This document shows positions 1,609-60,834 of a DNA stretch of 64,000 bases, piece by piece. A model generated the notes under the pieces. The model was not told the DNA's origin and made no database searches. It saw only the letters and a program-made list of their open reading frames with translations. The DNA is taken from positions 1,702,990-1,766,989 of the forward strand of contig CAWJXB010000006.1 in the NCBI GenBank assembly GCA_963846775.1, in the 5' to 3' direction. A program made the position numbers and the translations under genes. Origin of the DNA: an uncultured Verrucomicrobiae bacterium. GTDB taxonomy: Bacteria > Verrucomicrobiota > Verrucomicrobiia > Chthoniobacterales > UBA10450. Position 1 is the stretch's first letter; the number at the start of each line of letters is the position of its first letter.

Positions 1609-2781
1609 TTAACGTCCCGGCATCATCTCGAGCAAAACGCCTCTGAAATATTCCGTCTCGGGGATAGTCGGTAAAACCGGATGATCCAACGCTTGCTCGA
1701 AATGGCGTAATCTTCTGGCCGAGCGCCGAACATCGACCAGCGCGTCGGCAATGGTCTGCGAGAAGGCCGCATCGCTCACGTGATGTGAGCAGGAAAAAGT
1801 CGCGAGCAATCCGTCTTTCGACAGCAGCTTGAATGCGCGCACGTGTAACTCGCGATAGCCGCGCAAGGCATCGCGCAATCCGCTCTTGGTTTTCGTAAAC
1901 GATGGCGGATCAAGCACAATCAAATCGTATTGCGCTTCTGCTTTACCGGCATCGCGCAGAAACTGAAATACGTCCGCCTCGGTCCAGCGCACATTTGTTT
2001 TGTTACGCTCGGCGTTCCGTTTCGCCGCGGACAGATTATGGGAGCTTTCATCAACCGCCGTCACCTCCGCCGCGCTCGCGCGCGCGCAGATGAGCGCAAA
2101 CGCGCCTTGATTTGTGAAACAATCGAGCACGCGGCGGCCTTTCGCGTGTTGGGCCACGATCTCGTAATTTTGCCGTTGATCGAGATAGAAACCGGTCTTG
2201 TGTCCGCGCAGAAGATCGACCGCGAACTTTGCGCCGGCGATGTCGATCTCGATTAGCGCCGACGGCGCCGCGCTTGCCAAGACGCCAGTGCGCAATTCTA
2301 ATCCTTCGGCTTTTCGAATTGGCGCATCGTTGCGCTCGATGATTGTGACCTTCCCGAAAAGATCGACAATGGCCTCGGCGATCAAATTCTTCCGCAAATC
2401 CATTGCCAGGGTCAGCGTTTGTAAAACAAGATGATCGCCGTAACAATCGAGGACTACGCCGGGCAGACCGTCGCTCTCGCTCCAGACGATACGTCGCAAT
2501 TTAGGATCGACACCGCGCCGGTCGCGATACTCCGACGCCTGGGCAATCCGGCGCTTGAAAAAATCGAGATCGAGGTCCTGCTTTCGCCGCGAAAACCGGC
2601 GCGCCACGATCTGTGATTTCGAATTGTAAATCGCGCTTCCGATCAAATGATCGCGTCCGTCCTTGAGAGAAATCACATCGCCATCAGCCGGTTTGCCGAA
2701 AACTTTCAGCACCTCGCTGGAAAAAACCCAGTCGTGTCCGTGCAAAATTTGCGCGCGGGGTTTGACGACGAGTCCAGCCAT
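1609..2781 (-). CDS. rlmI: SAM-dependent 23S rRNA (cytosine-C5) methyltransferase, RlmI-like (PUA + class I MTase)
   Basis: N-terminal PUA-like region, central DPPSF and C-terminal class I MTase motifs, ~390 aa. Start set at the internal ATG (MAGLVVKP). Confidence 0.75.
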   Translation of the reverse strand: MAGLVVKPRAQILHGHDWVFSSEVLKVFGKPADGDVISLKDGRDHLIGSAIYNSKSQIVARRFSRRKQDLDLDFFKRRIAQASEYRDRRGVDPKLRRIVWSESDGLPGVVLDCYGDHLVLQTLTLAMDLRKNLIAEAIVDLFGKVTIIERNDAPIRKAEGLELRTGVLASAAPSALIEIDIAGAKFAVDLLRGHKTGFYLDQRQNYEIVAQHAKGRRVLDCFTNQGAFALICARASAAEVTAVDESSHNLSAAKRNAERNKTNVRWTEADVFQFLRDAGKAEAQYDLIVLDPPSFTKTKSGLRDALRGYRELHVRAFKLLSKDGLLATFSCSHHVSDAAFSQTIADALVDVRRSARRLRHFEQALDHPVLPTIPETEYFRGVLLEMMPGR

Positions 2782-2788
2782 ATTTAGA

Positions 2789-2850
2789 AAGTGAGAAGTG
2801 AGAAGTGAATGGTGAGAAGATAATCCCCAACCACGTCTCACTTCTCACTA
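2789..2850. repeat. tandem heptamer array (GTGAGAA x4) with inverted partner forming hairpin between divergent rlmI and purC starts
   Basis: gtgagaa gtgagaa gtgaatg gtgagaa ... tctcacttctcac; period 7, arms complementary. Confidence 0.7.
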
Positions 2851-2863
2851 ATCACAGCCGTTT

Positions 2864-3808
2864 ATGCAAACCTCGCCTCAAAGCTCAATCGATCTGACCG
2901 GAATCAAAAAACTGCGCAGCGGCAAGGTGCGCGAAGTTTTCGATCTCGGCGACACGCTTCTGTTCGTTGTGACCGACCGGCTTTCGGCGTTTGACGTGAT
3001 TTTATCCGACCCTATCCCGCACAAGGGCGCGGTGTTGAATCAGCTCTCCGCCTTCTGGTTCAAACGCTTCGGCAACTCCGACAGCCGTCGCGAGCAGGGC
3101 ATCGACAATCATTTTGTCACGGCAAACTTTGACGAATTTCCGGAGAATTTGCAGCCGTTCCGCGATCAACTTGCCGGACGTTCGATGATTGTCCGTAAAA
3201 CAAGACCGCTCCCGGTCGAATGTGTGGTGCGCGGTTATCTGGCCGGCTCCGGCTGGAAGGAATATCAGGAATCGCAAAGCGTATGCGGAATCAAATTGCC
3301 GGCGGGTTTGCAGCTCGCCTCGAAGTTACCGGAACCGATTTTCACGCCTGCGACCAAGGCCGAGGAAGGCCACGACGAAAACATCGACATGAAACGTTGC
3401 GCGCAGATTCTCGGCCCAAAAACGGCAGAGCAAGTGAAGAAGCTCAGTCTCGAGATTTACTCGCGCGGGCGGGATCACGCGGCGCAGCACGGGATCATCG
3501 TGGCCGATACGAAATTCGAATTCGGACAGATCGATCCGCCGCAGGACGGATCCGCCGTGGCGAACAATTGCTTGCTGTTGATTGACGAATGTCTTACGCC
3601 GGATTCGTCGCGGTTTTGGCCGGCTGATCAATATGTCGTCGGCCAAAGCCCGCCCAGTTTCGATAAACAATTTGTCCGCGACTATCTGGAAACGCTCGAT
3701 TGGGACAAAACCCCGCCCGCGCCGAAGTTGCCCGCCGACGTGATCGCGCGCACGGCAGCGAAGTATGTCGAAGCGTTCGAGCGATTGACTGGTGAGAGGT
3801 TAAGGTAG
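2864..3808 (+). CDS. purC: phosphoribosylaminoimidazole-succinocarboxamide (SAICAR) synthase
   Basis: Long-form PurC signatures (GKVREVFD, VVTDRLSAFDV, ADTKFEFG), 314 aa. Confidence 0.9.
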   Translation: MQTSPQSSIDLTGIKKLRSGKVREVFDLGDTLLFVVTDRLSAFDVILSDPIPHKGAVLNQLSAFWFKRFGNSDSRREQGIDNHFVTANFDEFPENLQPFRDQLAGRSMIVRKTRPLPVECVVRGYLAGSGWKEYQESQSVCGIKLPAGLQLASKLPEPIFTPATKAEEGHDENIDMKRCAQILGPKTAEQVKKLSLEIYSRGRDHAAQHGIIVADTKFEFGQIDPPQDGSAVANNCLLLIDECLTPDSSRFWPADQYVVGQSPPSFDKQFVRDYLETLDWDKTPPAPKLPADVIARTAAKYVEAFERLTGERLR

Positions 3809-3840
3809 GGCGCGCGGGCACTGCTTTTCCCAAGAACACG

Positions 3841-3866
3841 GCGACGGTCACAGACCGCCGCTACAG
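3841..3866. repeat. REP-like palindromic unit (forward), overlapping mdh stop
   Basis: gcgacggtcacagaccgccgCTAcag. The CTA is the reverse complement of the mdh TAG stop. Confidence 0.7.
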
Positions 3867-4841
3867 TAAGTCACTCACGAGCGATTTTTCTTCCTTCAAT
3901 TCGGCGACCGTCTTGTCGATCTTGTCGCGGCTGAATTCATTGATCGGGACACCTTGGACGATTTGCCATTTGCCGCCGTGGACGCGCACGGGAAACGATG
4001 AAATCAATCCTCGATCGACATGGTAACTTCCATCCGAACAAACGGCGACGCTATGCCAATCGTCACCGGCGGTGTCCTCCGTTAACGAGCGAACGCTGCC
4101 GATGACAGCGTTTGCGGCGGAAGCGGCCGAGGAAAGCCCGCGCGCTTTGATGACAGCAGCACCGCGTTGTTGCACCGTGGCGATGAAATCTTCCTTTAAC
4201 CATTTCTCGTCGCCGATGATCTCGCTGGCCGGGCGATTGTCGATCTTGGCGTTGTAAAAATCAGGATACTGGGTGGAGGAATGATTGCCCCAGATCGTCA
4301 TGTTCGTGACACGCGTAATCTGGACGCCGGCCTTGTGCGCAAGCTGAGCGCGGGACCGGTTTTCATCCAGTCGCGTCATGGCAAACCAGCGATCGGTCGG
4401 AATTTCCTTTGCGTTGTTCATCGCAATCAGGCAATTCGTGTTGCACGGATTTCCTATGACGAGAACGCGCACATCGGCGGCGGCATTCTTTTGCATCGCC
4501 TGCCCCTGGCCGATGAAAATTTTGCCGTTGATGCCGAGCAAATCTTTCCGTTCCATGCCGGCCTTGCGCGGGACGCTGCCGACGAGCAAGGCCCAGTTAA
4601 TGTCGCGAAAGCCTTCGTCGAGATCGGCTGTCGGCACGATCGAGTGGAGCAGCGGAAAGGCACAATCGTGCAGTTCCATTACCACGCCTTCGAGCGCACC
4701 AAGCGCGGGCGGGATTTCGACCAGATGGAGCGAGACGGGCTGGTCCTGGCCAAACATTTCGCCCGAAGCGATCCGGAAAACCAGCGCATAACCAATGTGA
4801 CCGGCCGCGCCGGTGACAGCGACTTTGATGGGTGACTTCAT
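3861..4841 (-). CDS. mdh: malate dehydrogenase (NAD), LDH2-family
   Basis: N-terminal Rossmann motif [12 protein letters not shown], catalytic region IWGNHS, 326 aa. Confidence 0.9.
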
Positions 4842-4884
4842 GATTCAATTAGCCACAGGGTCTGCCTTGGGCAATCCGGAAGGA

Positions 4885-5003
4885 TCAATGACGAATGTCG
4901 AATGTCTAATGACGAAGAAATGACGAAATCCAAATGACGAAAGTGATTCCTCGCTGCCTTTCGTCATTCATGAATTCGGATTTTCTTCGTCCATCGTCAT
5001 TAC
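4885..5003. repeat. tandem heptamer/octamer array (AATGACG-type) with inverted partner; long imperfect hairpin between malQ stop and mdh start
   Basis: aatgacg aatgtcg aatgtct aatgacg aag aaatgacg aaatcc aaatgacg aaag | ctttcgtcattcatgaattcggattttcttcgtccatcgtcatt. Confidence 0.7.
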
Positions 5004-6691
5004 GCGCGTCCCGTTTTCTCCAGCAACTTGCGAATCAGCGCCATTCGTTTTCGTTCCGCTCGGCTGGCGCGCAACTGCGCAATCGAGCGGTGCATTCGAC
5101 GCGTCCAATTCCCCGAAGCAGCGGTGCCGGGCACGTTGAAGCGATACTTGCACGCGAGCAGATCGGTGATCATGACCGAGGCGATCCACGATTCGCTCCG
5201 AAACAGCGCTTCCATGATCCGCGGATAAAAATCGCGGCTGTAATCGATCGATTCGCCCTTCGGCTGGAATCCGGCAAACTCGGCGATTTTGTTGAGAGCG
5301 TCGATGGATTGCTCCGATGTCGATGTGGGGTGCTCAATCGCCTCTTCCCACAACTTGCGTAACGGTTTGTGATCGTGCGTGGCGTAAGTCGCTACCGAGA
5401 CGCGATTGTATTCGCTCCCAGGGGTGACCCGGCCATGATACACTTCCCATTGCGGGATTTTGAATCCGGCGATTCCTAACGAGCGCAGACTGGGGCGGAC
5501 ATAATCGGGTACCGTCCCCAAATCTTCGCCAATTACCCGCGCGTCGCCCGACTCCTCCAGGACGGCGCGCAAATATTCTTCGCCTTCGCGCAAATTCGCG
5601 GCGCACTCTTCCGGATTGGAATCATTCCGCGGCGCAAAATGCGGGGCACGGCCGCCGGTCTTGGCCAACATCTCATTCCATTCCAGTGCCAGGAATTTTC
5701 GATTCTGCGATGGTCGCCACGGGAAAGCATAGATCCGATAAAAGCCGAGGACGTGATCGATCCGGAAAAGATGAAAAATGCGGCGGACAAAGCGGACCCG
5801 TTCCCGCCACCAATCGAAACGGCGCGTCCGCATCGCGTCCCAGCGATAAAGAGGGATGCCCCAGTTTTGTCCCCATTTTTGTGTAAACTTATCGTCTTTG
5901 AAGTATGGCTCCGGCGGCGCGCCGCCTGACCAGTCGAGCGCAAACTCGTCGTGCCGAGCAAAGACATCGGCGCTGTAGTAACTGATGCCGAACGGAATGT
6001 CGCCCATCAATGCCACACCGCGCTCTTCGGCGAACGCTTTGATCGCGCGCCACTGTTCGTGCGCGATCCATTGCACATAGCGAAAGAAATTCTCCCGCTT
6101 GGCAAATGCCGATTGTCGATCCAGCGGCAAATTGCATAACCACTCCCGCGCCGATCCCGGCGAGGGCGTCGGCCATCGGTCCCACGTTTCGTGCTCGCCA
6201 TTCTCTTCCATCAAGGCGCGGAACAGGGCGTAATGGTTCAGCCACGCCGCTTCTTTTTCACAAAATTTCCCGAAACTCGATTCGCGCTCAGCGCTCGCGT
6301 GGATGCAAAACCGGGCAAACGCGTTCTCCAACAACTGACGATTCAGTTTCCTGGTCTGCGGATATTTCACGGCCCCATGTCGAAGCGCCGCCAGATCGAA
6401 AGTCGTTAGGGTCGCAGAAAAGTCCTCCGCGCTCAAATCTTCCGGGCTGCCTGGCGCTAGATAAATCGTCGTTGGCTCGATCGCCATCGCACTAATGGCG
6501 TTGTAGGGACTGTTGTCACCTCCGATTTCATTGATCGGCAGAAGTTGCACCAGCTTGAACCCGGCGTCGGCTGCCCACTCGATGAATTGCCGCAGCGCCT
6601 CGGTGTCGCCGACTCCAAGATCGTCATCACGGCGCAACGCAAACAACGGCGCCAGAACACCGGCGATTTTCTTTTCGTGGGGGAGATCCAT
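5000..6691 (-). CDS. malQ: 4-alpha-glucanotransferase (amylomaltase, GH77)
   Basis: 563 aa with GH77 catalytic-region motifs (FRIDHVLGF, IGEDLG, ATHDH). Confidence 0.88.
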   Translation of the reverse strand: MDLPHEKKIAGVLAPLFALRRDDDLGVGDTEALRQFIEWAADAGFKLVQLLPINEIGGDNSPYNAISAMAIEPTTIYLAPGSPEDLSAEDFSATLTTFDLAALRHGAVKYPQTRKLNRQLLENAFARFCIHASAERESSFGKFCEKEAAWLNHYALFRALMEENGEHETWDRWPTPSPGSAREWLCNLPLDRQSAFAKRENFFRYVQWIAHEQWRAIKAFAEERGVALMGDIPFGISYYSADVFARHDEFALDWSGGAPPEPYFKDDKFTQKWGQNWGIPLYRWDAMRTRRFDWWRERVRFVRRIFHLFRIDHVLGFYRIYAFPWRPSQNRKFLALEWNEMLAKTGGRAPHFAPRNDSNPEECAANLREGEEYLRAVLEESGDARVIGEDLGTVPDYVRPSLRSLGIAGFKIPQWEVYHGRVTPGSEYNRVSVATYATHDHKPLRKLWEEAIEHPTSTSEQSIDALNKIAEFAGFQPKGESIDYSRDFYPRIMEALFRSESWIASVMITDLLACKYRFNVPGTAASGNWTRRMHRSIAQLRASRAERKRMALIRKLLEKTGRA

Positions 6692-6698
6692 TTGGGAA

Positions 6699-6788
6699 GG
6701 TGAGAAGTGATCAGTGATCCGCGATCCGTGAACAGTTTACGCAGCGTTGCTTCATGCTGATCACTGATCACCGATCACAACTCTATTT
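6699..6788. repeat. tandem heptamer array (GTGAnnn x5) with inverted partner; hairpin immediately upstream of malQ start
   Basis: gtgagaa gtgatca gtgatcc gcgatcc gtgaaca ... gatcactgatcaccgatcac. Confidence 0.7.
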
Positions 6789-8151
6789 CGACTCCTGGCG
6801 TAGGCACAATCACCTCCGCGTTAGGCAATTCTGCGCTCAACGTCGCGCGCATCCATTCCACCGCCGACACATCGCCGTGCACGAGCACGACTTTTTGCGG
6901 CGACACCTTCTTCGCGTACGCAATCAACGTCTCGCGCGAGGCGTGGGCGCTGAATTGGAACTGCTTCAAATTGCACCGGACGTGCTGGGGCGCTTCATCT
7001 GGATCGAGCTGAACTTCGCTCCCCGGCGCGGCATCGCGCAGCAATCCCGCCGGAGATTCCGGATCGGCGTAGCCGACAAAAAAGATCGACTGCTGCGGAT
7101 TCTCCACCAGGCGATGCGCGAAAATGTTTGAGAGCGTTTTGGGCGTCATCATTCCGCTGGAGAGCGCATAGACGCGGCCCGGACGCGGCGCCGCGTCGTG
7201 AATCGTTGCGCCATTCAACACGAACGGGGCCATATCATCCATCAACTGCAGACGCGGCAATTGCCTGCGGCTCATTCCGGCGCGGCGATCGTAAATCTTG
7301 GTCATCTTCGAGCTCAAACCTCCGATATAAATCGGAAAATCCCGCTGCAACTGGTCGCGCCTAAATTTGCCAAGCATAGCCAGAACTTCCTGCGTTTTGC
7401 CTAAGGCGAAGACCGGGATGAGCGCGCAGCCACCACCCTGGAAAGCGTCCTCGATCGCTGCGGCCAGAAGGCGTTCTTCGGCAGCGCGCGTCCAATCAGC
7501 CGGTTGAGCGTGATCGCCGCGGGTGCATTCCATGATCAGAATGTCGATCCCTTCGTCGGGAAAGACCGCCGCTTGCATGATCGTTTGATCGTCGAAGTTC
7601 ACATCGCCCGTGTAGAAAACCGTGCCACCTTCGCCGCGGAGCAGAATTCCAGTGGAACCGAGGACGTGACCAGCATCGTAGAGCTCGAAGGACAATGGGC
7701 CGGTCTCGTTCGGCGGGACGCGCTCGCCCGAAATCGAGAGGCGCTGCCGCATCGGACACGACTGCCAAAGATCTGACGCGCGATCGGTCTCACGATGGGT
7801 GAAGAGCGGATACAACATTGTGCCCAGCTCTTCGCGCTGGCGCATCATCACGTTGACGGAGTTATGCAGTAGCACATCGCCAATGTCGGCCGTGGCGTCG
7901 GTCATGAAGACGCGCGCACGCGGTTGCCGTCGCATCAGTACCGGTAACGTCCCGATGTGGTCCTGGTGCGCGTGCGAGATCAGGATCGCGTCAATTGGTC
8001 GATCCGCGATCGGTTTGAAATTTGGTAGCGCATCTTCGCCGACGTTTTTTGGGTGCATCCCGCAATCGAGTACGATCCGGTGCCCCGCGATTTCCAGATA
8101 ATATGAGTTCGCGCCGATCTCAGTGTGCCGCGTCAGATTGATGAATTTCAA
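6775..8151 (-). CDS. MBL-fold metallo-hydrolase, beta-CASP family (RNA-metabolising nuclease-like)
   Basis: HxHxDH metallo-beta-lactamase motif (SHAHQDHIG) plus a beta-CASP-like C-terminal region, 458 aa. Confidence 0.75.
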   Translation of the reverse strand: MKFINLTRHTEIGANSYYLEIAGHRIVLDCGMHPKNVGEDALPNFKPIADRPIDAILISHAHQDHIGTLPVLMRRQPRARVFMTDATADIGDVLLHNSVNVMMRQREELGTMLYPLFTHRETDRASDLWQSCPMRQRLSISGERVPPNETGPLSFELYDAGHVLGSTGILLRGEGGTVFYTGDVNFDDQTIMQAAVFPDEGIDILIMECTRGDHAQPADWTRAAEERLLAAAIEDAFQGGGCALIPVFALGKTQEVLAMLGKFRRDQLQRDFPIYIGGLSSKMTKIYDRRAGMSRRQLPRLQLMDDMAPFVLNGATIHDAAPRPGRVYALSSGMMTPKTLSNIFAHRLVENPQQSIFFVGYADPESPAGLLRDAAPGSEVQLDPDEAPQHVRCNLKQFQFSAHASRETLIAYAKKVSPQKVVLVHGDVSAVEWMRATLSAELPNAEVIVPTPGVEIEL

Positions 8152-8183
8152 GACGGCAAAGCGTTGCGGATACCCCTTGGAAT

Positions 8184-8250
8184 GTAGCGGCGGTCTGTGA
8201 CCGTCGCCATCTCTTGGAAAAAGTTTGCGACGCTCATAGAGCGCCGCTAC
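8184..8250. repeat. REP-like pair (inverted + forward unit with ~18-bp spacer)
   Basis: gtagcggcggtctgtgaccgtcgc ... tgcgacgctcatagagcgccgCTAca. The second unit supplies the dipeptidase stop codon. Confidence 0.7.
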
Positions 8251-9284
8251 AGGAGCTGTTCAAAGATTCGCATCCAGTTTCGGTACAAAATTTTCTCGAT
8301 TTGCTCGTCGGTGAAGCCGCGCTCGATCAATTTTCGCGTCAGATTGCGCGCCTGCGAATGGTTCGTGAGGTCCGGGATAAAATGCGCTTTCGTCAGTTTG
8401 GCCTCGACCTCTTCCGCCGCCTCCTTGGGCAATTGCTGAAACAGGTACTCGCAAAAATCCAAGCCGATGCCAACGCCGTCGATGCCAATGAGACCAATTA
8501 CGTGCTCGATATGATCGATGTAATGATCAATCGTGCTTCCCTCCTGGGTCGGACTGACCAGGATCGCGTTCACGCCGACCACGCCGCCGCGTTGGCCGAT
8601 CGCTTTGATCTGATCATCGCTGATGTTCCTTTCCATGTCGTAAAATTTGCGCGTGTTAGTGTGCGAAACGATCAACGGTTTTTCCGTGAGATCGACAATA
8701 TCGGCAAAGCCTTGCGGGTTGATATGGGCCAGATCGACAATGATGCCGAGCCGCTCGCATTCGCGCACGATTTCACGTCCGAATTCCGTAAGTCCATCGC
8801 GTGAGGAACCGCTGGGTTTGAAAACGCCGCCGCTGCCGGCGGCGTTGCGACGGGCATGGGTCAGCCCGATCACGCGCACGCCGAGCTCGAAAAAAACGCG
8901 CAGCAGATTCGGATCTTCGCCTAACGGCTCGACTCCTTCCATCGTGATCACGAGCGCGATTTTCCTCGCCGCGCGCGCCTGCCGGATTTCCTTATACGTT
9001 TTGCAGATGACGAACTGTGGCGCGCTTGCGACTTCGCTGTACAACTGTGCGACCTGCCCCAACCCAACGCGCAATCCCATTTCCGGCAAATAGCGATCGT
9101 CGATGTAAATGGCCGCGCCAATGAGAGCGATGTTTCCCGCTTCGAACTCAGGTAAATAATGCGCGGTTAATTGGCCGGGCCGGTTCCGTTTCTCGTACAA
9201 ATCGAACGGTAAATCGAAATGAAGATCGATCAGGCCGGGCGCGTGAAGACGATTTACGCGTTGTTCGATTGACTCGTTAGGCAT
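8247..9284 (-). CDS. membrane dipeptidase (peptidase M19 family)
   Basis: 345 aa; renal-dipeptidase-fold motifs (DLHFDLPFDL, HTNTR, GIDGVGIGLDF). Confidence 0.85.
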   Translation of the reverse strand: MPNESIEQRVNRLHAPGLIDLHFDLPFDLYEKRNRPGQLTAHYLPEFEAGNIALIGAAIYIDDRYLPEMGLRVGLGQVAQLYSEVASAPQFVICKTYKEIRQARAARKIALVITMEGVEPLGEDPNLLRVFFELGVRVIGLTHARRNAAGSGGVFKPSGSSRDGLTEFGREIVRECERLGIIVDLAHINPQGFADIVDLTEKPLIVSHTNTRKFYDMERNISDDQIKAIGQRGGVVGVNAILVSPTQEGSTIDHYIDHIEHVIGLIGIDGVGIGLDFCEYLFQQLPKEAAEEVEAKLTKAHFIPDLTNHSQARNLTRKLIERGFTDEQIEKILYRNWMRIFEQLL

Positions 9285-10898: not shown

Positions 10899-11058
10899 AG
10901 TTTTGGTATTTGGTTTGTTCTAATGACCCCGAAAAACTTCGGGGCGTTCATGGATTGGTGACCGGCCGGGGCAAAACGCGGTTACATTTTTTACGACGAA
11001 CGTGCGAATCTATTTGTCGCGGGCCGGCAGAGACAATCTACAGTGGACGCCACGGAAG

Positions 11059-12357
11059 ATGCCAAAGGTCCTCGCCAAAATTGTCGATGTTAAGCCGGTG
11101 GAAATCCGTGCGCTCTGGCTCGCTTTCGTTTTCAACTTCGTCATCCTCGCCGGCTACTACATTCTCCGCCCAATTCGCGAGGAAATCGGCGCGACCAGCG
11201 GCGTTGAAAATCTGCCGTGGATGTACACAGCCACGCTTATCGGCATGCTCATCGCGAACGCGCTCTTTGCCGCCATCGTGTCGCGCATGTCGCGCCGCAA
11301 GTTTCTGCCCATCGCCTACCGCTTCGCGATTGCCAATCTTTTCATTTTTTTCATTCTGATGCGTTTCGTCCCGCCGAACTGGCAATGGCTTCTGGCGCGC
11401 TCGTTCTTTGTCTGGGTCAGCGTCTTCAATCTTTTCGCGACGACGCTTTTCTGGGCCTTCATGACCGACCTGTTTACGGCCGAACAAGGCAAACGTCTTT
11501 TCGGGTTCATCGCCGTCGGCGGTTCGTTAGGCGCAATTCTTGGCCCGCTCGTGCCGACGTTCCTCGTCGATCGTCTCAGCACCGGCATTTTCTGCCTTAT
11601 GTCGGCGGCCATGTTCGAAATCGCGGCGCAATGCGTCCGTTTTTTTCCAGCCGAACCTGACGAGCATTCTCAGACCGAAACGGGCGAGAAACCGATCGGC
11701 GGAAACATTTGGGACAGCGTCACGCACATCGCCCGTTCACCGTACTTATTCGCGCTCGTCCTCTTCATCTTTATTTACACGCTGACGAATACCTGGGCCT
11801 ATTTTCAACAGGCTGATCTCACGCAGCATCAGTTGGCGGACAAATCGGCCCGCACTGCATTCTTTGGTAAACTGGATTTCTCGGTCAACACCCTTACGGT
11901 GCTGATTCAACTGTGCCTAACTAGCCGATTACTGAAATGGTTTGGAGTAGGGTTCACGCTCGTTCTTATGCCGGCGCTCAGCGGGATTGGTTTTCTATCC
12001 ATTGGCTATGCCCCGATCCTAGTTGTGCTTGCGATTTTTCAAGTGGTGCGACGTGCCACTGGCTTCTCGCTGCTTCGTCCAGCGCGCGAGATTCTGTTCA
12101 CCGTTTTACGGCGGGAGGACAAATACAAAGCGAAAAGCGTGATCGACACATTCGGTTATCGCCTTGGCGATCAAGTGGGCGCGTGGTCGTATCGCGCGAT
12201 GCACGCCGTCGGTTTGGGCTTGAGCGCTATCAGCTTCATTGCTGTGCCACTCATCGTTGCGTGGTGCGCGTTGAGCGTTTGGCTGGGACGAAAACAAGCG
12301 GCATTGGCGCGTCAGCGCTGGACGGAAACCGAAGAGCGCCGAAACTTAGCGTCGTGA
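11059..12357 (+). CDS. MFS-type transporter, TLC (ATP/ADP translocase-like / Npt) family
   Basis: 12 predicted TM segments. N-terminal motif YYILRPIREE resembles the TLC-family signature. Start at the internal ATG (MPKVLAKI). Confidence 0.55.
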   Translation: MPKVLAKIVDVKPVEIRALWLAFVFNFVILAGYYILRPIREEIGATSGVENLPWMYTATLIGMLIANALFAAIVSRMSRRKFLPIAYRFAIANLFIFFILMRFVPPNWQWLLARSFFVWVSVFNLFATTLFWAFMTDLFTAEQGKRLFGFIAVGGSLGAILGPLVPTFLVDRLSTGIFCLMSAAMFEIAAQCVRFFPAEPDEHSQTETGEKPIGGNIWDSVTHIARSPYLFALVLFIFIYTLTNTWAYFQQADLTQHQLADKSARTAFFGKLDFSVNTLTVLIQLCLTSRLLKWFGVGFTLVLMPALSGIGFLSIGYAPILVVLAIFQVVRRATGFSLLRPAREILFTVLRREDKYKAKSVIDTFGYRLGDQVGAWSYRAMHAVGLGLSAISFIAVPLIVAWCALSVWLGRKQAALARQRWTETEERRNLAS

Positions 12358-14082: not shown

Positions 14083-14103
14083 TAGCTTGGAAACGTGACC
14101 GGC

Positions 14104-14272
14104 CTTGGGTAGCGCATGCGTCACGCGTGTCTGGCCAGCGCGTCTCGCGATGGTGAACTTCTCTTAGCGCGCTGCCTCGGCCGAAATCCCGGATCGAGGG
14201 AAGATCGTTTCGGCGCGATGCCGAAAGTCCGAGCCGGACTGGCATCAGCACGCAAGACGCGTGCGCCACCCA
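14104..14272. repeat. structured ~170-bp repeat element with terminal inverted repeats (MITE-like), copy A
   Basis: Ends gggtagcgcatgcgtcacgcgtg / cacgcaagacgcgtgcgccaccc are inverted repeats. Internal hairpin tttcggcgcgatgccgaaa. The right half is ~95% identical to the 23634-23722 copy. Confidence 0.65.
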
Positions 14273-14279
14273 AAACAAA

Positions 14280-17497: not shown

Positions 17498-17631
17498 CGC
17501 CGGACCGTCCGTCTCGTATTTCTACGACGCTATCAAGCCCGGTCAAATGGCGGGGATCAGTTCATCTCCAGAAACATTCAACCTGCCGCAATGCTCGCCT
17601 CTGAATTGGATGTTGAACGTTGGACAACCTG

Positions 17632-17668
17632 CCCCGTTTCTTTTTTTCGGGGTTGGGCGTTTTCTGAA
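17632..17668. repeat. 35-bp hairpin repeat (CCCCG-T-rich-CGGGG + TTGGGCGTTTTCT), intergenic copy
   Basis: ccccgtttctttttttcggggttgggcgttttct; 27 of 28 positions identical to 48131-48158. Confidence 0.6.
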
Positions 17669-22836: not shown

Positions 22837-22976
22837 CGAAACGCGTTCTGCGTTTTGCGTTAGTCGTTAGCGGATTGGAGAAAGTGATCGCGAAGGTCGC
22901 AGATGGAAATGGATTGTAGGGCAGGGCGCTCCGCCGGCCACGGCAGCCGACGCGGTTAGCCTACGAATTTGCTCCG

Positions 22977-23633: not shown

Positions 23634-23722
23634 GGGTGGCGAAGGATTGGGTAGCGCACGCGTCTCGCGTGCTGATGCCAGTCCGGCTCGGACTTTCGGC
23701 GTCGCGCCGAAACACGCTTTCC
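23634..23722. repeat. partial (half) copy of the MITE-like structured repeat, copy B
   Basis: gcgcacgcgtctcgcgtgctgatgccagtccggctcggactttcggcgtcgcgccgaaac matches the reverse complement of 14200-14265. Confidence 0.65.
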
Positions 23723-23939
23723 TTTGGCACCCTCTGCAGCGAGAAATGAAATCTCAGTTCTTCGAGACTCGAACAGTTATTTGAGCGACCAGGCCGACTG
23801 TACCGGGTGGGGTAGCGCCGCTCGGTCAGGTCGCATTAGCAGGCAGGAGTCACAGTGCAGTAAAATGGATCAAACAGAGCCTGGCCCGGTGCAGAGCATC
23901 TGCGAAGCCAGTGGCGGAGCGCCGCGATGGCGCAAAATC

Positions 23940-31539: not shown

Positions 31540-31595
31540 TTCGCGTCAATTTTAACGTTCAACCTGAACGCTCAACGTCCAATGCTCAAAAAAAG
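31540..31595. repeat. degenerate tandem repeat (CGYTCAA-N-AA, period ~13) in convergent intergenic region
   Basis: cgtcaattttaa cgttcaacctgaa cgctcaacgtccaa tgctcaaaaaaa. Confidence 0.4.
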
Positions 31596-32393: not shown

Positions 32394-32516
32394 GGCTTAT
32401 CCTCCTGTAGTTGAGGAAAGTCAGACACGAATTGCACAAATTGTCACGAATCTTCGGCGGGTGACCCGCTGGAACCAGTCGTCCGGATTCGTGAAATCCG
32501 TGGCACGCCGAGCGAC

Positions 32517-42261: not shown

Positions 42262-42380
42262 CCACGAATCAACACGAATTGAGAGTTTCAAGCATTTCCC
42301 GGGAAGCTTTCAGCTTCCCCATCGGGAGCTATCTTCCATTCGCGTTGATTGGTGTCCATTAGTCATTAATTCAGCGCGAC

Positions 42381-47700: not shown

Positions 47701-49762
47701 GCGAGGGTTCCGGATAGGCTTGTGAGACTTGCTGGAGAAGCTGCGCCAGTTGCTCACGCGTTTCGGTGCTGAGGTCCTGGCCGTTTTTGTGCCAGGCAGT
47801 CAGGCAAAGTTTGTCTTGCTTGAAAAAGGTCAGGCTCGAATCACCACAATGCAGCGACATTGCCACGAGCCCGCCAAGTCTTGTGTCTTCGAGGTGATTG
47901 TCGATCTTGTCGATCAGCGCTGGCGCGATGGAACAGATCCCTTCGGCCTGCAAATCGCCCGGGATGTTACCCGCCAGGCTGAGGCCGTCCGTGAACGAGA
48001 CGGTGCAACCGGCCACGCCAGTGAGACCACTGGCGCGAGCAATTGCGCGTTTGGCGTCGATCGCTTCCGCCTTGGCCGAGGCTCCGGCAGACGGTTCGAT
48101 CTTTTCTTCAGTTGGACGTTGGGCAGCCCGCCCCGTTTCTTTTTTTACGGGGTTGGGTGTCGGGCGTTGGGCGTTTTCTTTGCCACTCTGAAAACGTTTC
48201 GCGTCCTCCTCCGCTTTGAGCGAAAATGGCGTCTCGAATTTCTCGGTCACCGCTTCCTGTTCCTGGTCCGCGCGCACGCGCAGCGCCGTGACTGGAAACT
48301 GCTTCACGATTTCTGGCAACGGGAGCGTCACCGCTGTCTCGTTAGGATCAACCAGGAAGAGCGGCCGATACGCTTCGGGCACGGCCCGTTCGAAAATGCG
48401 CGCCGGGATACTAACGCGACCAGACGCCAACTGTGGCTCTATCATCGACGACGGAAATTCCACGCGCGCGTCTTCCGGAACGCTCATCGGGCTGCCGTTC
48501 AATTGAAATGGCGGCAACTCGCTCAGGACCGCCTGGAGCGACAAGATAATGTTGCGCTCGCCCTTTCCGCCTGGTGTCGGCGCGACCGGCTGCCTCGGGG
48601 ACGGCTCAGATTTTGCGGCAGGCTCGATCCCCGGCACGAGGGTAAACTTGGGGCGAATATCGTTGCTCGGCGCTTTAACCGCGAACGGAACCGGCGGAAG
48701 CGGCGGTTGATCGAGAGCGACTGTCTCGTTAGGCTTCTGCGCCGGGGCCGCGACGGCCGATTCAGGTTCAGACGCCGAAATTGGAACGGGCGGCCCGCTT
48801 GAGGCTGGAACTCTCTCAGCGGCGGGCGCGCCCGTCCCGTTCGGTGGAAGATGGAACGGAATCTCTCTGGCGGCCGGTGTGGCAATACCATCATCGGCGC
48901 GTGGGGTTTGCAGGGTCGCTGGAGGAGAAGCAGCGGGAGCTGAAGTAAGCGCTCCCAAATCCCGCAGCGAAATCTTTGGCCGGCGGGACCGTGTCGGAGT
49001 TTCCTCGGAAACCTTTTGCTTTGGTTTCGCTAATTGCAGAACGGCGGGTTCAGGCTCGGCTTCGGCGATTGTTTTCGCAATCGCGGGCTCCACTTTCATC
49101 GGCGGCTGCGTCGATGTTTGCAACGGCTCGATCTCGGTGCCAAAGCGCTCCGTGTCCTCGATCGTGACCTGCAAGATCGGCGTGTCGAGCTGGGGCAAAT
49201 TTTCATCGCGTTCTTGATCGTTGCGCACGTGAAAATTGTGGAATTGCTCGAGCACTTTCGCATAGGGAAGCGGGACCGGAGTGGCGTCTCCTGGCGCGAC
49301 GACGTTGACAAAAATTTCCGGCGCCTGTTCATAGATGCTCGCCAGTGGCACACTCGGCTTGCCCTTAGCCATGCCCTTTTCGATCTCCGATGCCATGAGA
49401 ACAATGGTGCGCGCGGCATCAATTTCCTTGGTTGGTTTAATGGCGGTGTTCGGCAACTGATCCAGAATGTCAGACACTTGGAGAGAAATGGTGCGTCGGA
49501 TTTCCGCTTCGGGAGTGCGTTCATTCAGGGGCCGAGCCGTCAAGGGGTCGAGTGCACGAGCGGAGTTCTTCGCCCCCAGAAACGGATCGGACCCGCTCCC
49601 TGGGCGGTTCGCGCTCGGCATCACCGTCTTACTCAAACGCTGATCCTTTGACTTCACTGCCCGCACCATCGGTGGTGCCGCCGGCTTGCTTTTCCCGAAT
49701 GGAAAAAAACGCGCCTTCGCTTTAATGACAAGATCGACAAACGGCAGGTTCATAACGCTCAC
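47687..49762 (-). CDS. Pro/Ala-rich 691-aa protein with internally duplicated motif and C-terminal roadblock/LC7-like domain
   Basis: Low-complexity Pro-rich central region. A ~35-aa motif occurs twice (IYEQAPEIFVNVVAPGDATPVPLPYAKVLEQF and IFERAVPEAYRPLFLVDPNETAVTLPLPEIVKQF). The last ~120 aa resemble a roadblock fold. Confidence 0.6.
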   Translation of the reverse strand: MSVMNLPFVDLVIKAKARFFPFGKSKPAAPPMVRAVKSKDQRLSKTVMPSANRPGSGSDPFLGAKNSARALDPLTARPLNERTPEAEIRRTISLQVSDILDQLPNTAIKPTKEIDAARTIVLMASEIEKGMAKGKPSVPLASIYEQAPEIFVNVVAPGDATPVPLPYAKVLEQFHNFHVRNDQERDENLPQLDTPILQVTIEDTERFGTEIEPLQTSTQPPMKVEPAIAKTIAEAEPEPAVLQLAKPKQKVSEETPTRSRRPKISLRDLGALTSAPAASPPATLQTPRADDGIATPAAREIPFHLPPNGTGAPAAERVPASSGPPVPISASEPESAVAAPAQKPNETVALDQPPLPPVPFAVKAPSNDIRPKFTLVPGIEPAAKSEPSPRQPVAPTPGGKGERNIILSLQAVLSELPPFQLNGSPMSVPEDARVEFPSSMIEPQLASGRVSIPARIFERAVPEAYRPLFLVDPNETAVTLPLPEIVKQFPVTALRVRADQEQEAVTEKFETPFSLKAEEDAKRFQSGKENAQRPTPNPVKKETGRAAQRPTEEKIEPSAGASAKAEAIDAKRAIARASGLTGVAGCTVSFTDGLSLAGNIPGDLQAEGICSIAPALIDKIDNHLEDTRLGGLVAMSLHCGDSSLTFFKQDKLCLTAWHKNGQDLSTETREQLAQLLQQVSQAYPEPSHVDR
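48131..48178. repeat. 35-bp hairpin repeat, copy inside Pro-rich protein coding sequence
   Basis: ccccgtttctttttttacggggttgggtgtcgggcgttgggcgttttct; encodes ...NPVKKETG... on the minus strand. Confidence 0.6.
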
Positions 49763-52598: not shown

Positions 52599-52674
52599 GT
52601 AGCGGCGCGTCTATGACCGTCGCCATCTCTCAGCCCTCCAGTTTGCGACGGTCGCAGACTGCCGCTACAATCGC
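52599..52674. repeat. REP-like pair inserted in 5' leader of the PMT-like TPR gene
   Basis: gtagcggcgcgtctatgaccgtcgcc - 20-bp spacer - tgcgacggtcgcagactgccgctacaatcgc. Confidence 0.7.
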
Positions 52675-56330: not shown

Positions 56331-56692
56331 GAGGAAATCATTCGTGCGGATTCATCGCCGCTCTTGCCGGCGCACACCAAAGCGACGGACCTCGTTGACG
56401 CAGCCCACGCAAGGGGAATAATCCCACTATGACTCTCACCGCTTGACGGTAAGAAGCGCGGCGTGCTGCCTGGAGCAAAGCCGGGAGGCGTTTTCGCCTG
56501 CGAGCAAAAGGCGAATACAATTCTTCTGCGCCGCGTTCACCGAACCGTCTCGCGCAAGAAATTGACCAAGGCACAGGCGCTCAAGGCAGTCCGCGGTTGG
56601 AAAGCGTTGCGCGGCGTGAAGTGGGAAGAACTGCGCGCCAGAGAGTCTTGATTCGGCTCAATCGAACTTATCGAGCCGCCGCTTTCATGAGT

Positions 56693-56725
56693 TTGCGACG
56701 GTCACAGACCGCCGCTACAATCGCC
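56693..56725. repeat. REP-like palindromic unit (forward)
   Basis: tgcgacggtcacagaccgccgctacaatcgcc; identical core to the 3841 copy. Confidence 0.7.
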
Positions 56726-56806
56726 CCAGCGTTGGGCGTGGGCTTTCTTTTAGCAACAAAGATCGACTGAAGGTTCAGCACAACGTTGCGACAGAGTCAG
56801 AATACG

Positions 56807-59197: not shown

Positions 59198-60232
59198 ATG
59201 ACAAAAGAGCGCCACGAATTCGCCAGCGATAATACTGCCCCGATTTGTCCCGAAGTCTGGGATGCCCTGGCAAAAGCAAACCGCGCCGCCGCCGCGTCCT
59301 ATGGTGAAGACGAATGGAGTGCGCGACTACACGAACGTGTCCGCGACCTGTTCGAAGCCGATTGCGAGAGCTTTCTTGTCTTTAACGGCACGGCTGCGAA
59401 TGCGCTGGCGCTGGCGCAGCTTTGCCAGCCGTTTCACAGCATCGTTTGTCACGAACGCGCCCACATTGAAACCGACGAGTGCGGCGCGCCGGAATTTTTC
59501 TCCGGCTCTAAACTGCTGGTCGCGCGTGGCGATCACGGTAAAATCGACATTGGCGAGGCGCAATCGGTCATTGGTCGCCAGCCGGAACTACACGCGCAGA
59601 AGCCGCGGGTCATCAGTCTGGCGCAAGCGACAGAGTTGGGCACAGTTTACCAACGGCACGAGATTCGCGCGCTGAGCGAATTGGCCCTTGAACGGTCGCT
59701 CTTCATCCACATGGATGGCGCACGCTTCGCCAATGCCGTGGCGTCGCTTGACTGCGCCCCGAAAGAAATCTCGTGGCAGTCCGGGGTCGATGTTCTCTGT
59801 TTCGGCGGCACCAAAAACGGGCTCGCTGCGGGGGAGCTGGTTGTGTTTTTTAAGAAGGAATTGGCGCGCGAATTCGATTACCGGATCAAACAAGCCGGGC
59901 AGCTCGGTTCGAAAATGCGGTTTCTGGCTGCGGGCTGGCTTGCGCTTCTCGAAAACGATCTTTGGCTGCGCAATGCCGAACAGGCCAATGCGGCCGCGCG
60001 CCGGCTGGCGGAAAAGCTCCGCGGGCTAACGAACATTAGCATTTTGTTTCCGGTGGAAGCGAACGCGATTTTTGTTCGTTTGGAAGAGCGAATCGCACAC
60101 GCGCTGCAAGCAGCCGGCTGGCATTTCTACAGGTTTATTGAGCCTGATGTTTATCGCTTCATGTGTTCGTGGGCGACCAGCGAGCGCGCCACTGAAGATC
60201 TTGTCGCGGAAGTAAAACGTGCGTGGAAGTGA
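59198..60232 (+). CDS. ltaE: low-specificity L-threonine aldolase
   Basis: Beta-eliminating lyase fold with PLP-Lys region (GGTKNG), 344 aa from the internal ATG (MTKERHEFASDN). Confidence 0.85.
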   Translation: MTKERHEFASDNTAPICPEVWDALAKANRAAAASYGEDEWSARLHERVRDLFEADCESFLVFNGTAANALALAQLCQPFHSIVCHERAHIETDECGAPEFFSGSKLLVARGDHGKIDIGEAQSVIGRQPELHAQKPRVISLAQATELGTVYQRHEIRALSELALERSLFIHMDGARFANAVASLDCAPKEISWQSGVDVLCFGGTKNGLAAGELVVFFKKELAREFDYRIKQAGQLGSKMRFLAAGWLALLENDLWLRNAEQANAAARRLAEKLRGLTNISILFPVEANAIFVRLEERIAHALQAAGWHFYRFIEPDVYRFMCSWATSERATEDLVAEVKRAWK

Positions 60233-60282
60233 TGAACCGCCTAAAAATTGCGCCCGGCGCGCGAAGTCGTATAAAGCACGCA

Positions 60283-60834
60283 ATGCCGCATCACGCGCAA
60301 TCGTTTTTGTTGCTTAACCTGTCGATCCTGACAGGAACCGCGTTGGGTGGGTGCAGCGTCGCTCACGATGCTGCCTCCGTGACGTATCACGCTGCATCCG
60401 CAACGTACCATGCTGCATCCACAACGTATCATGCTGCATCCACAACGTACCACGCGGTCACTGTGCCGGTGCGAATCATTAGGCGGAACGTTGCCCATCG
60501 ACTGCCTCCCGACGCTCATGGGGAAAACACGACCACGAGCGTCGTGACCGAAACGGCCCCGACAACTCCGGATTCTTCGATCGCGACGACGCCTGCAACG
60601 CCCCGGAAGTCCGCCCCCCCGCAAAAGGCCGCGGTCTTCTCGAAGGCTAAAGCTTCGCCAACTCCAGGTGCCGTGCCGCGTGTGCAATTTCCAATCGCCG
60701 AGCGGGTTCCCGGCAAATCCGGATTGGTGATGAGCCCGTTCGATCCGGAAGCAAGATATGTCGACGTCAGCGGTTACGCCTCCGGCAGTAAAGTGAAGGA
60801 TCCGTGGACGGAGAAGATTTTCATTGTGCCGTAG
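60283..60834 (+). CDS. lipoprotein with four tandem (V/A/T)TYHAAS heptapeptide repeats and Thr/Pro-rich linker
   Basis: Signal peptide with lipobox-like LGGC. Repeats encoded by four 21-bp tandem units (60380-60463). Confidence 0.5.
   Translation: MPHHAQSFLLLNLSILTGTALGGCSVAHDAASVTYHAASATYHAASTTYHAASTTYHAVTVPVRIIRRNVAHRLPPDAHGENTTTSVVTETAPTTPDSSIATTPATPRKSAPPQKAAVFSKAKASPTPGAVPRVQFPIAERVPGKSGLVMSPFDPEARYVDVSGYASGSKVKDPWTEKIFIVP
60380..60463 (+). repeat. 4 x 21-bp in-frame tandem repeat inside lipoprotein gene
   Basis: gtgacgtatcacgctgcatcc / gcaacgtaccatgctgcatcc / acaacgtatcatgctgcatcc / acaacgtaccacgcggtcact. Confidence 0.8.

Follow-up and report, generated by a model that had tools for sequence, protein, structure and literature searches.

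We studied a heptamer-repeat stem-loop that lies between the divergent genes rlmI and purC of an uncultured Verrucomicrobiae bacterium. The whole 64-kb stretch of DNA that was analyzed is called the window, and coordinates refer to it unless a relative is named. The rlmI gene (1609-2781, minus strand, ATG at 2781) encodes an RlmI-like S-adenosylmethionine-dependent methyltransferase of 390 amino acids with a PUA domain. The purC gene (2864-3808, plus strand) encodes SAICAR synthetase. The spacer between both start codons measures 82 nucleotides (nt). A longer open reading frame (ORF) of 405-410 amino acids for rlmI reaches a GTG at 2841, through the stop-free TTCTCAC reading of the repeat array. 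It is an artefact of this stop-free arm, and the start that gives 390 amino acids is preferred.

The purC homologues that bear source names belong to Chthoniobacterales and Verrucomicrobia. The best match among species representatives is a Candidatus Udaeobacter metagenome-assembled genome (MAG), with 78% identity. An exact look-up of the purC protein of the window returned no identical record. The host is a Udaeobacter-like member of the Chthoniobacterales (Verrucomicrobiota).

A stem-loop of tandem heptamers between two gene starts

The left (5') arm of the hairpin presents four units on the plus strand (GTGAGAA GTGAGAA GTGAATG GTGAGAA; 2791-2818), found with Tandem Repeats Finder and a self-match scan. 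The right (3') arm, TCTCACTTCTCAC (2837-2849, plus strand), is the reverse complement of the left units, according to the repeat finder and the fold. Between them, the apical region GATAATCCCCAACCACG (2819-2836) shows weak inner pairing in the fold. In relatives, this region consists of AAGTGATCCCCACC or AAGTAATCCCCACCCC. Inverted-repeat search and RNA folding of both strands place the whole palindrome at 2790-2849. A first-pass annotation of this DNA had described a period-7 array and its complement at 2789-2850. Both are present. However, the gap between the perfect arms is 18 nt and not the 25 nt it had given.

Tandem Repeats Finder reports 4.4 copies of period 7 at 2789-2819. The right arm has an extended imperfect pairing that begins at 2824, and a degenerate fourth unit (TAATCAC) comes after it, up to 2855. 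When the imperfect inner pairing is counted, the repeat finder gives arms of 26 nt (2790-2815 and 2824-2849), 85% complementary, with a loop of 8 nt. On the plus strand, TGA occurs in each of the three frames of the left arm.

We scanned periods 4 to 12 in the window, and only period 7 yields any 21-nt stretch with at least 17 self-matches. Four period-7 loci are present, compared with none in 60 block shuffles. Inverted repeats were counted at 14/14 and 15/16 matches. The hairpin holds the only perfect 14/14 inverted repeat of the window with a loop of up to 60 nt, and 40 block shuffles gave none; at a threshold of 18/20, no inverted repeat was returned in the window. The proposal that this is not random simple-sequence DNA therefore holds.

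RNA folding gives a very stable stem-loop each way. The free energy is -32.2 kcal/mol for the plus strand (z -7.2) and -34.1 kcal/mol for the minus strand (z -7.6). At 50 °C, the minimum free energy is -24.2 kcal/mol in the purC sense and -30.2 kcal/mol in the rlmI sense. So, the element is palindromic in its architecture, as the first-pass annotation stated. Its further point, that both transcripts carry the same 5' structure, is right for the fold, which is symmetric, and holds only if both transcripts start upstream of the stem. The rlmI-purC element is a non-random, strand-symmetric stem-loop of heptamer repeats.

The stem ends 9 and 14 nt from the ATGs of rlmI and purC. The divergent gene context is nearly as annotated; the distance from arm to ATG had been put at 10-25 nt. 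No Shine-Dalgarno core (GGAG, GAGG or AGGA at -20 to -4) was found before the ATG of rlmI or purC, as annotated. Nevertheless, this is not special to these genes. Gene calls from two close relatives show the core before only 7 of 42 genes (about 17%), so its lack before rlmI and purC is ordinary.

A thermosensing role had also been suggested. Over 10-80 °C in silico, the 3' arm is unpaired with a probability of only 0.08-0.25. No temperature closes the region of the purC AUG, whose unpaired probability is 0.64-0.70 at 10-37 °C. An RNA thermometer would sequester the start codon or the ribosome-binding site and melt in the physiological range, and neither behavior appears in these predictions. 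A thermometer is therefore not supported, because the stem is folded over this whole range in silico and covers neither start codon.

Searches for known signals gave little. A scan for sigma-70-like promoters over 2500-7000 found none in the spacers and two sites inside genes. A promoter in the hairpin loop was considered and rejected: the GATAAT of the window loop is not conserved in the relatives L001, L003, and L085. A consensus terminator scan of 2782-2863 found no site. Intrinsic terminators have a G+C-rich stem and a U-tract on the 3' side of a gene; the rlmI-purC spacer lies between two gene starts and lacks this arrangement. Rfam 15 gave no match at the gathering score in the whole window. 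With permissive E-values, only eukaryotic microRNA-precursor models appeared, below threshold, that is, generic long hairpins.

Alleles of the spacer in related genomes

We compared the locus with relatives, defined as contigs whose purC proteins are 86-99% identical to that of the window. These share the gene order DHOase, CBS, rlmI, purC, mdh, malQ, beta-CASP RNase, and M19 peptidase. Their rlmI-purC spacers fall into two discrete alleles with unrelated heptamer words. Type A, with GTGAGAA arms, is present in the window, L001, L003/L004, and L085. Type B, with CAACGTC/CAACGCT in the left arm and GAGCGTT in the right arm, is present in L002, L087, L089, and L090. It is also found in L005, a Candidatus Udaeobacter MAG, with other palindromes nested in the loop. 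The flanking coding DNA is 90-97% identical in all pairs. Spacers of one type share 88-98% identity, those of different types about 45%, and the boundaries are sharp.

Two of the type-B spacers show an additional feature. In L005 (about 150 nt upstream of purC) and in L090 (9778-10000 of that contig), the arms are split by palindromes that have entered the loop, such as GTCATTCCGAGCGGAGTCGAGGAATC; the fold of the L005 region has z -12. In both, other small repeats seem to insert at the hairpin apex.

The flanks of L003 are closest to the type-B genomes, and its spacer is type A. Because of this combination, we conclude that the rlmI-purC alleles move by recombination. On the sequences compared, the words of whole arms are replaced, with alleles exchanged between lineages. 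The first purC codons go together with the allele (MQTSPQSS vs MQIATQAS).

Unit numbers also differ. Counted as left/right, the window has 4/3 units, L001 has 3/4, and both L003 and L085 have 4/4; the flanks are 93-99% identical. Whole units are gained or lost on either arm, which is a signature of replication slippage.

Within an allele, substitutions are rarer than at the four-fold sites of the adjacent 130 codons. For example, the identities of spacer and four-fold sites are 0.95 vs 0.81 (P = 2e-4) in one comparison and 0.988 vs 0.875 (P = 1e-4) in another. All alleles form long stems (-32 to -55 kcal/mol, z -6.6 to -8.5). The stem is kept while the sequence is wholly replaced between types A and B, and the variants within an allele are too few for covariation. 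In L087, two adjacent changes convert GAACGAAGTGATTC to the better-paired GAACCAAGTGGTTC.

Other hairpins occupy the site upstream of purC in further genomes. They are built on GTCCAAC/GTTGGAC in L009 and L011, on AGCAGGA/TCCTGCT in L010, and on GTTCAAA/TTTGAAC in L015. On the other hand, L007 (Chthoniobacterales, purC 78% identical) lacks a hairpin, and just 15 nt separate its two start codons. Judging from these comparisons, the hairpin appears to be a long-lived occupant of the rlmI-purC spacer, with a free word, and dispensable.

The first-pass annotation had likened the C/U/A-rich arm to leaders that enhance translation without a Shine-Dalgarno sequence. The start-proximal arms of all three window hairpins (the other two are described below) are indeed pyrimidine-rich. 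However, type B has GAGCGTT and GACGTTG in this position, rich in G and T; no arm sequence is conserved, and L007 lacks the hairpin. The comparison does not bear out an enhancer arm.

Sister hairpins and a class of heptamer hairpins across phyla

The annotation was right that the design recurs nearby with other words. A first sister hairpin (4885-5001, fold z -3.2) carries AATGACG/CGTCATT words in the spacer from malQ to mdh. On the sense (minus) strand, it begins right after the malQ stop codon (TAA, 5000-5002) and stops roughly 45 nt short of the mdh ATG (4841). A second one (6699-6778, fold z -4.6) carries GTGAGAA/AGTGATC ... CTGATCA words in the spacer from the beta-CASP RNase to malQ. The stop codon of the RNase (TGA, 6775-6777) lies within its third CCGATCA unit, and about 7 nt separate the end of the stem from the malQ ATG (6691). 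Both follow stop codons, yet they have no U-tracts. A start at a stop codon, as in two of the three window hairpins, is typical of 3'-end or intercistronic elements and not of leaders. The purC-mdh spacer, the one convergent spacer close by, has G+C-rich REP-like stems instead of a heptamer hairpin. One further period-7 array, with GCGTTNT units, was found by the self-match scan in a convergent spacer (22843-22870, plus strand). It has a single arm and no hairpin partner.

A shared core was considered and dropped. GAAAGTGATYC occurs in or near the apex of all the window hairpins, and we examined it as a mobile or binding core and as a signature of the family. GAAGTGAT has four matches in the window compared with 1.65 expected, which is no significant enrichment. 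The longer GAAAGTGATYC motif appears only in orthologous copies of the same spacers (15 Chthoniobacterales loci). The GAAGTGA units may have expanded from this motif as a seed.

In the relatives, the malQ-to-mdh spacer always holds AATGACG hairpins. In L085, the entire 133 nt from the malQ stop to the mdh ATG form one hairpin of -64 kcal/mol. The malQ-to-RNase spacer is different. The purC DNA of L001 is 99% identical to that of the window, and this spacer contains an unrelated 248-nt palindrome of CACAGAT type. It occupies 6942-7189 of L001, with ACACAGATG-type repeats, in place of the 83-nt AGTGATC hairpin of the window (6692-6774). L085 retains only the left part. This is a second case of cassette-like replacement.

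To place these hairpins in a wider setting, we considered 1.27 Mb of purC-centred loci. They contain 50 period-7 clusters, compared with 10 or fewer for any other period from 4 to 12. Period-7 arrays occur in Verrucomicrobiota, Acidobacteriota, Planctomycetota, and Omnitrophota, often as an array with its inverted array, and with many words. Orientation classes are uninformative in this set, where the sampling selects orthologous rlmI-purC spacers and inflates the divergent class.

Metagenome contigs were scanned for GTGAGAAGTGAGAAGTGA, and at least 120 contigs carry GTGAGAA arrays, with G+C contents of 32-71%. Polarity was then evaluated in 128 arrays with enough flank, where a TTCTCAC arm required at least 12 of 14 matches within 150 nt. 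Among the matches listed, which also underlie the gene contexts given below, the TTCTCAC arm is downstream of the GTGAGAA array in 38 cases and upstream in none (two-sided P ~7e-12). AATGACG arrays in viral contigs have the complement arm downstream in nine cases and upstream in none, some of them duplicates. The class has a fixed polarity: on both strands, the purine-rich arm with TGA is 5' and the pyrimidine-rich arm is 3'.

The gene context was classifiable for 27 of the GTGAGAA hairpins. Sixteen are convergent, nine tandem, and two divergent; the convergent share is above the 24.5% background (P = 1.3e-4). Flanking ORFs end between -18 and +11 nt from the hairpin, and several cases were inspected by eye. 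The stop codon is therefore often the array's own TGA. In tandem spacers, single arrays lie 17 times on the sense strand and four times on the antisense strand (P = 0.007). Heptamer words contain TGA more often than letter-permuted words (17 vs 10 expected, P = 0.006; 30 vs 15.7, P < 0.0005). Enrichment of any stop codon in the heptamer words was not significant (21 vs 22.5 expected; 42 vs 36.6). The class adjoins stop codons and is enriched between convergent genes and between cistrons. The idea of a family of 5' leaders does not agree with this distribution, nor with the sister hairpins.

The metagenome contig L118 (JFJP01022119.1, 12.7 kb) illustrates the intercistronic position. It carries a ribosomal-protein operon from S19 to L17, with SecY and RpoA. 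Nearly every intercistronic spacer holds a heptamer hairpin of GTGAGAA/TTGAAAA type. These hairpins start 0-4 nt past the stop codon and end just ahead of the next Shine-Dalgarno site. In this contig, a naive ORF caller also yields spurious 'SHFSLLTSHF' peptides from the stop-free arm.

Other repeats are present in the window. A dispersed REP-like family, TGTAGCGGCGGTCTGTGACCGTCGCC, often forms head-to-head pairs (811-843, 3836-3870, 8180-8256, 52609-52674, and 56683-56733). Most copies stand at gene 3' ends, one such place being the convergent purC-mdh spacer; the pair at 3840-3865 and 8183-8208 shows 100% complementarity along 26 nt. Two intergenic regions 9.4 kb apart (14197-14273 and 23647-23723) are linked by a dispersed inverted repeat of 77 nt with 91% complementarity. 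Both copies are inside larger structured spacers, and 14083-14279 folds with z -5.4. This repeat could be an element similar to miniature inverted-repeat transposable elements or an unannotated RNA.

Several repeats share words with the hairpins. Two copies, 83% identical (17612-17657 and 48111-48156), have GTTGGAC/GTTGGGC units around a small CCCCG-TTTCTTTTTTT-CGGGG stem. Their GTTGGAC word is the one of the purC-upstream hairpins in L009 and L011. Both copies fall inside crudely called ORFs, and those calls may be wrong. A convergent spacer holds a single-arm array (AACGTTC AACCTG AACGCTC AACGTCC AATGCTC; 31545-31592) followed by an A-run. Its word family is that of the type-B rlmI-purC allele and of the left end of the L090 spacer. 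Intergenic hairpins at 42262-42380 (z -6.4) and 32394-32516 use CACGAAT/ATTCGTG words with no clean 7-nt period, and are possibly related to the AATGACG/ACGAAT word family.

Finally, a 21-nt tandem repeat, ACGTACCACGCTGCATCCACA, is present in 3.5 copies at 60368-60455 (also scored as 42 nt x 2). It lies within a predicted coding region (60223-60834, plus strand) and would encode a 7-residue peptide repeat. Between two divergent genes, about 1 kb (10899-11936) has no convincing long ORF in the crude call. It begins with a small G+C stem and continues with T-rich sequence.

Readings of the element and comparison with known systems

We lean, with modest confidence, towards reading the rlmI-purC element as a heptanucleotide simple sequence repeat (SSR) palindrome. 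It would be a member of a broad REP-like class of extragenic hairpins and not a gene-specific riboregulator. The arrays would arise through replication slippage. Intrastrand template switching, or selection for pairing, may keep the arms complementary, as the change in L087 suggests. When transcribed, the element would supply transcript boundaries with a generic stem, long and double-stranded. It could protect 3' ends, terminate transcription, or serve as a processing site of RNase III type, as in the hmw hairpin of Haemophilus. In the divergent context of rlmI-purC, the rarest one, it would most likely provide both mRNAs with a constitutive stem-loop near the 5' end, or separate the two units as a barrier. 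Its effect would be at most constitutive, independent of the word, and tuned only by unit number, with no sensor of temperature or ligand. The element is probably of minor consequence for rlmI and purC.

The polarity of the class could have a simple explanation. With the purine arm first, UGA would stand in all three frames right after the stop codon of a gene entering from either side, or would itself be that stop. The stop-free pyrimidine arm would then lie at the distal end. With reversed polarity, ORFs would be able to read through the arm, which is the same artefact as the extension of rlmI through the TTCTCAC reading.

Some points weigh against the SSR-palindrome reading. The spacer is divergent, so the 3'-end role typical of the class is impossible for the flanking genes. 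The low substitution rate within alleles could reflect selection specific to this locus, and so could the persistence of the hairpin in this spacer down to a purC identity of about 63% (L015). The metagenome gene contexts rest on a crude longest-ORF caller, and some of the matches may be orthologous and hence not independent. Template switching between the arms is a step that we infer.

A serious alternative, possible in our judgment but doubtful, is that the hairpin is a neutral passenger at rlmI-purC. Slippage favoring 7-nt units, together with the correction of quasi-palindromes, would create it as a by-product, tolerated and with no effect on either gene. The excess of period 7 across phyla and in many words fits this explanation, as do the turnover of arm words and the unit indels between close strains. 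L007 does without a hairpin-bearing spacer, and the malQ-RNase spacer is swapped too in L001 and L085, despite coding identities of 97-99%. Nevertheless, divergence within alleles is below that of neighboring four-fold sites, and both alleles and the hairpins of distant relatives keep a long stem at the same site. Moreover, polarity, stop adjacency, and convergent enrichment throughout the class imply selection on at least placement and orientation. The model of the first-pass annotation is improbable. There, the hairpin was a dedicated bidirectional leader, regulatory or thermosensing, hiding a C/U/A-rich enhancer independent of Shine-Dalgarno sites. The short distances to both ATGs, identical structure on both strands, absence of Shine-Dalgarno sites at both genes, retention of a hairpin in most relatives, and pyrimidine-rich proximal arms of the three window hairpins all suit such a leader. 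However, the stem is predicted to remain folded over the whole temperature range with the AUGs outside, and the G/T-rich arms of type B leave no conserved enhancer sequence. Shine-Dalgarno sites are lacking genome-wide, L007 lacks the hairpin, and the class stands mainly at gene 3' ends, with no Rfam match.

A bidirectional terminator or insulator, poor in U-tracts, could block read-through or antisense transcription that arises inside one of the divergent genes and would enter the other; we consider this quite unlikely. GTGAGAA hairpins are enriched between convergent genes and adjoin stop codons, and their polarity puts a U/C-rich 3' arm both ways, hence a weak RNA:DNA hybrid. The tail on the rlmI side is UUUCUAAAU. 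On the contrary, the consensus scan was negative at 2782-2863, in a spacer that has no gene 3' end. The same kind of hairpin stands between the ribosomal-protein cistrons of L118, where strong termination would be harmful, and the convergent purC-mdh spacer uses GC-rich REP-like stems instead. We give very little credence to a function of the DNA itself, either as a repeat array bound by a protein or as a cruciform responding to negative supercoiling between divergent promoters. Divergent transcription favors cruciform extrusion, and the palindrome has a short loop. Tandem heptads do bind protein in some promoters, for example, TTTTGAT at ctxAB (bioRxiv 10.1101/2021.05.14.444153). But the word is wholly replaced between alleles and neighboring spacers, and repeats spaced 7 bp apart do not stay in phase with the DNA helix. 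In addition, most members of the class lie between convergent genes, where supercoiling is positive.

Tentatively, and as a rather doubtful proposal, heptamer hairpins might be selected, strand-symmetric boundary modules present across phyla. Each would combine a fail-safe stop with a hairpin for RNA-end protection, processing, or termination. A 7-nt period has no common factor with 3, and would put UGA in all frames of the 5' arm on both strands. Purine-first arms would be obligatory, with the stem beginning at or in the stop codon. Words would drift freely and be swapped as cassettes, and at rlmI-purC a divergent spacer would have captured one such module.

Known systems share parts of this picture. 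Tandem heptamers were reportedly described in cyanobacteria by Mazel in 1990, as STRR sequences. Heptanucleotide repeats are the most abundant long SSRs in most prokaryotes, and polymerase slippage has been proposed for them (Mrazek 2007, as summarized in PMC4692102 and PMC4679880). The element resembles both in its head-to-tail units of 7 nt, in three or more copies, its intergenic site, and the use of several words per genome. Likewise, period 7 is over-represented, unit number is polymorphic between close strains, and the sequence varies among them. The difference is that the array pairs here with an inverted copy to form a long hairpin, and that the host belongs to Verrucomicrobiota. Our literature search found no report of heptamer repeats in this phylum.

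Xanthomonas has GGGAATC repeats and Nostoc has GGGGA(T/C)T repeats, both G-rich words whose formation of G-quadruplexes was the object of study (Rehm et al. 2015, PMC4692102). They too are intergenic heptamer arrays, retained at the same gene pairs in related species and varying extensively in length and sequence, and some inverted pairs can fold as stem-loops. However, GTGAGAA has no G-runs, and the hairpin is the rule here and the exception there. Geobacter metallireducens has palindromic sites of tandem heptanucleotides with the consensus MTYCTGA, named 'class 3 global regulator binding sites' (PMC2700814). As here, about five tandem heptamers with TGA in the word form multicopy, intergenic, strand-switching palindromes. 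In contrast, the Geobacter families have one consensus each and were read as protein-binding, while here each spacer has its word and alleles swap words.

REP/BIME, ERIC, and Correia palindromes are transcribed intergenic elements that affect mRNA stability, processing, and termination. They are dispersed copies of a complex consensus, mobilized by transposases. The heptamer hairpins are similar in their strand-symmetric stems, often after stop codons or between convergent genes. However, they are low-complexity arrays with a word specific to each spacer, and not many copies of one complex consensus. The TGTAGCGGCGGTCTGTGACCGTCGCC repeats are a separate REP-like family of the window.

TAACTGA direct repeats of Beggiatoaceae and cyanobacteria have a suggested role in translation (PMC4679880). 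They also contain stop codons in the heptamer and are gene-oriented, a few nucleotides from the boundaries of coding sequences. Unlike the hairpins, they are direct only (1 of 170 inverted), lie just upstream of start codons, and have one genome-wide word. Tandem heptamers occur in promoters of Nostoc DNA-repair genes as well (bioRxiv 10.1101/2022.06.06.494920).

The (ATCTTTC)n hairpin in the 5' untranslated region of Haemophilus influenzae hmw1A and hmw2A is the one precedent in which experiments have established what happens to such a stem. Its cleavage by RNase III is required for expression, which is inversely related to unit number (PMC12721329). The rlmI-purC element has the same organization, with a heptamer array of variable unit number as one arm of a long hairpin. 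Nevertheless, in hmw, 11 or more units pair with a non-repeat, G-rich arm, the pyrimidine arm comes first, and the locus is a contingency locus for a surface adhesin. Here, 3-4 units form both arms, ahead of housekeeping genes.

The rlmI-purC locus adds an example from soil Verrucomicrobiota to the heptanucleotide repeats, which since 1990-2007 have been recognized as the long simple repeats with the greatest excess in bacterial intergenic DNA. As far as the literature was checked, the arm polarity (38:0 and 9:0 among the matches listed), the adjacency to stop codons, and the cassette-like alleles are new descriptive points. Should these regularities hold genome-wide, heptamer repeats would be definable as a class of elements at transcript boundaries. 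Gene calling would be affected too, since ORFs are lengthened by the stop-free arm, as in rlmI (405-410 vs 390 amino acids).

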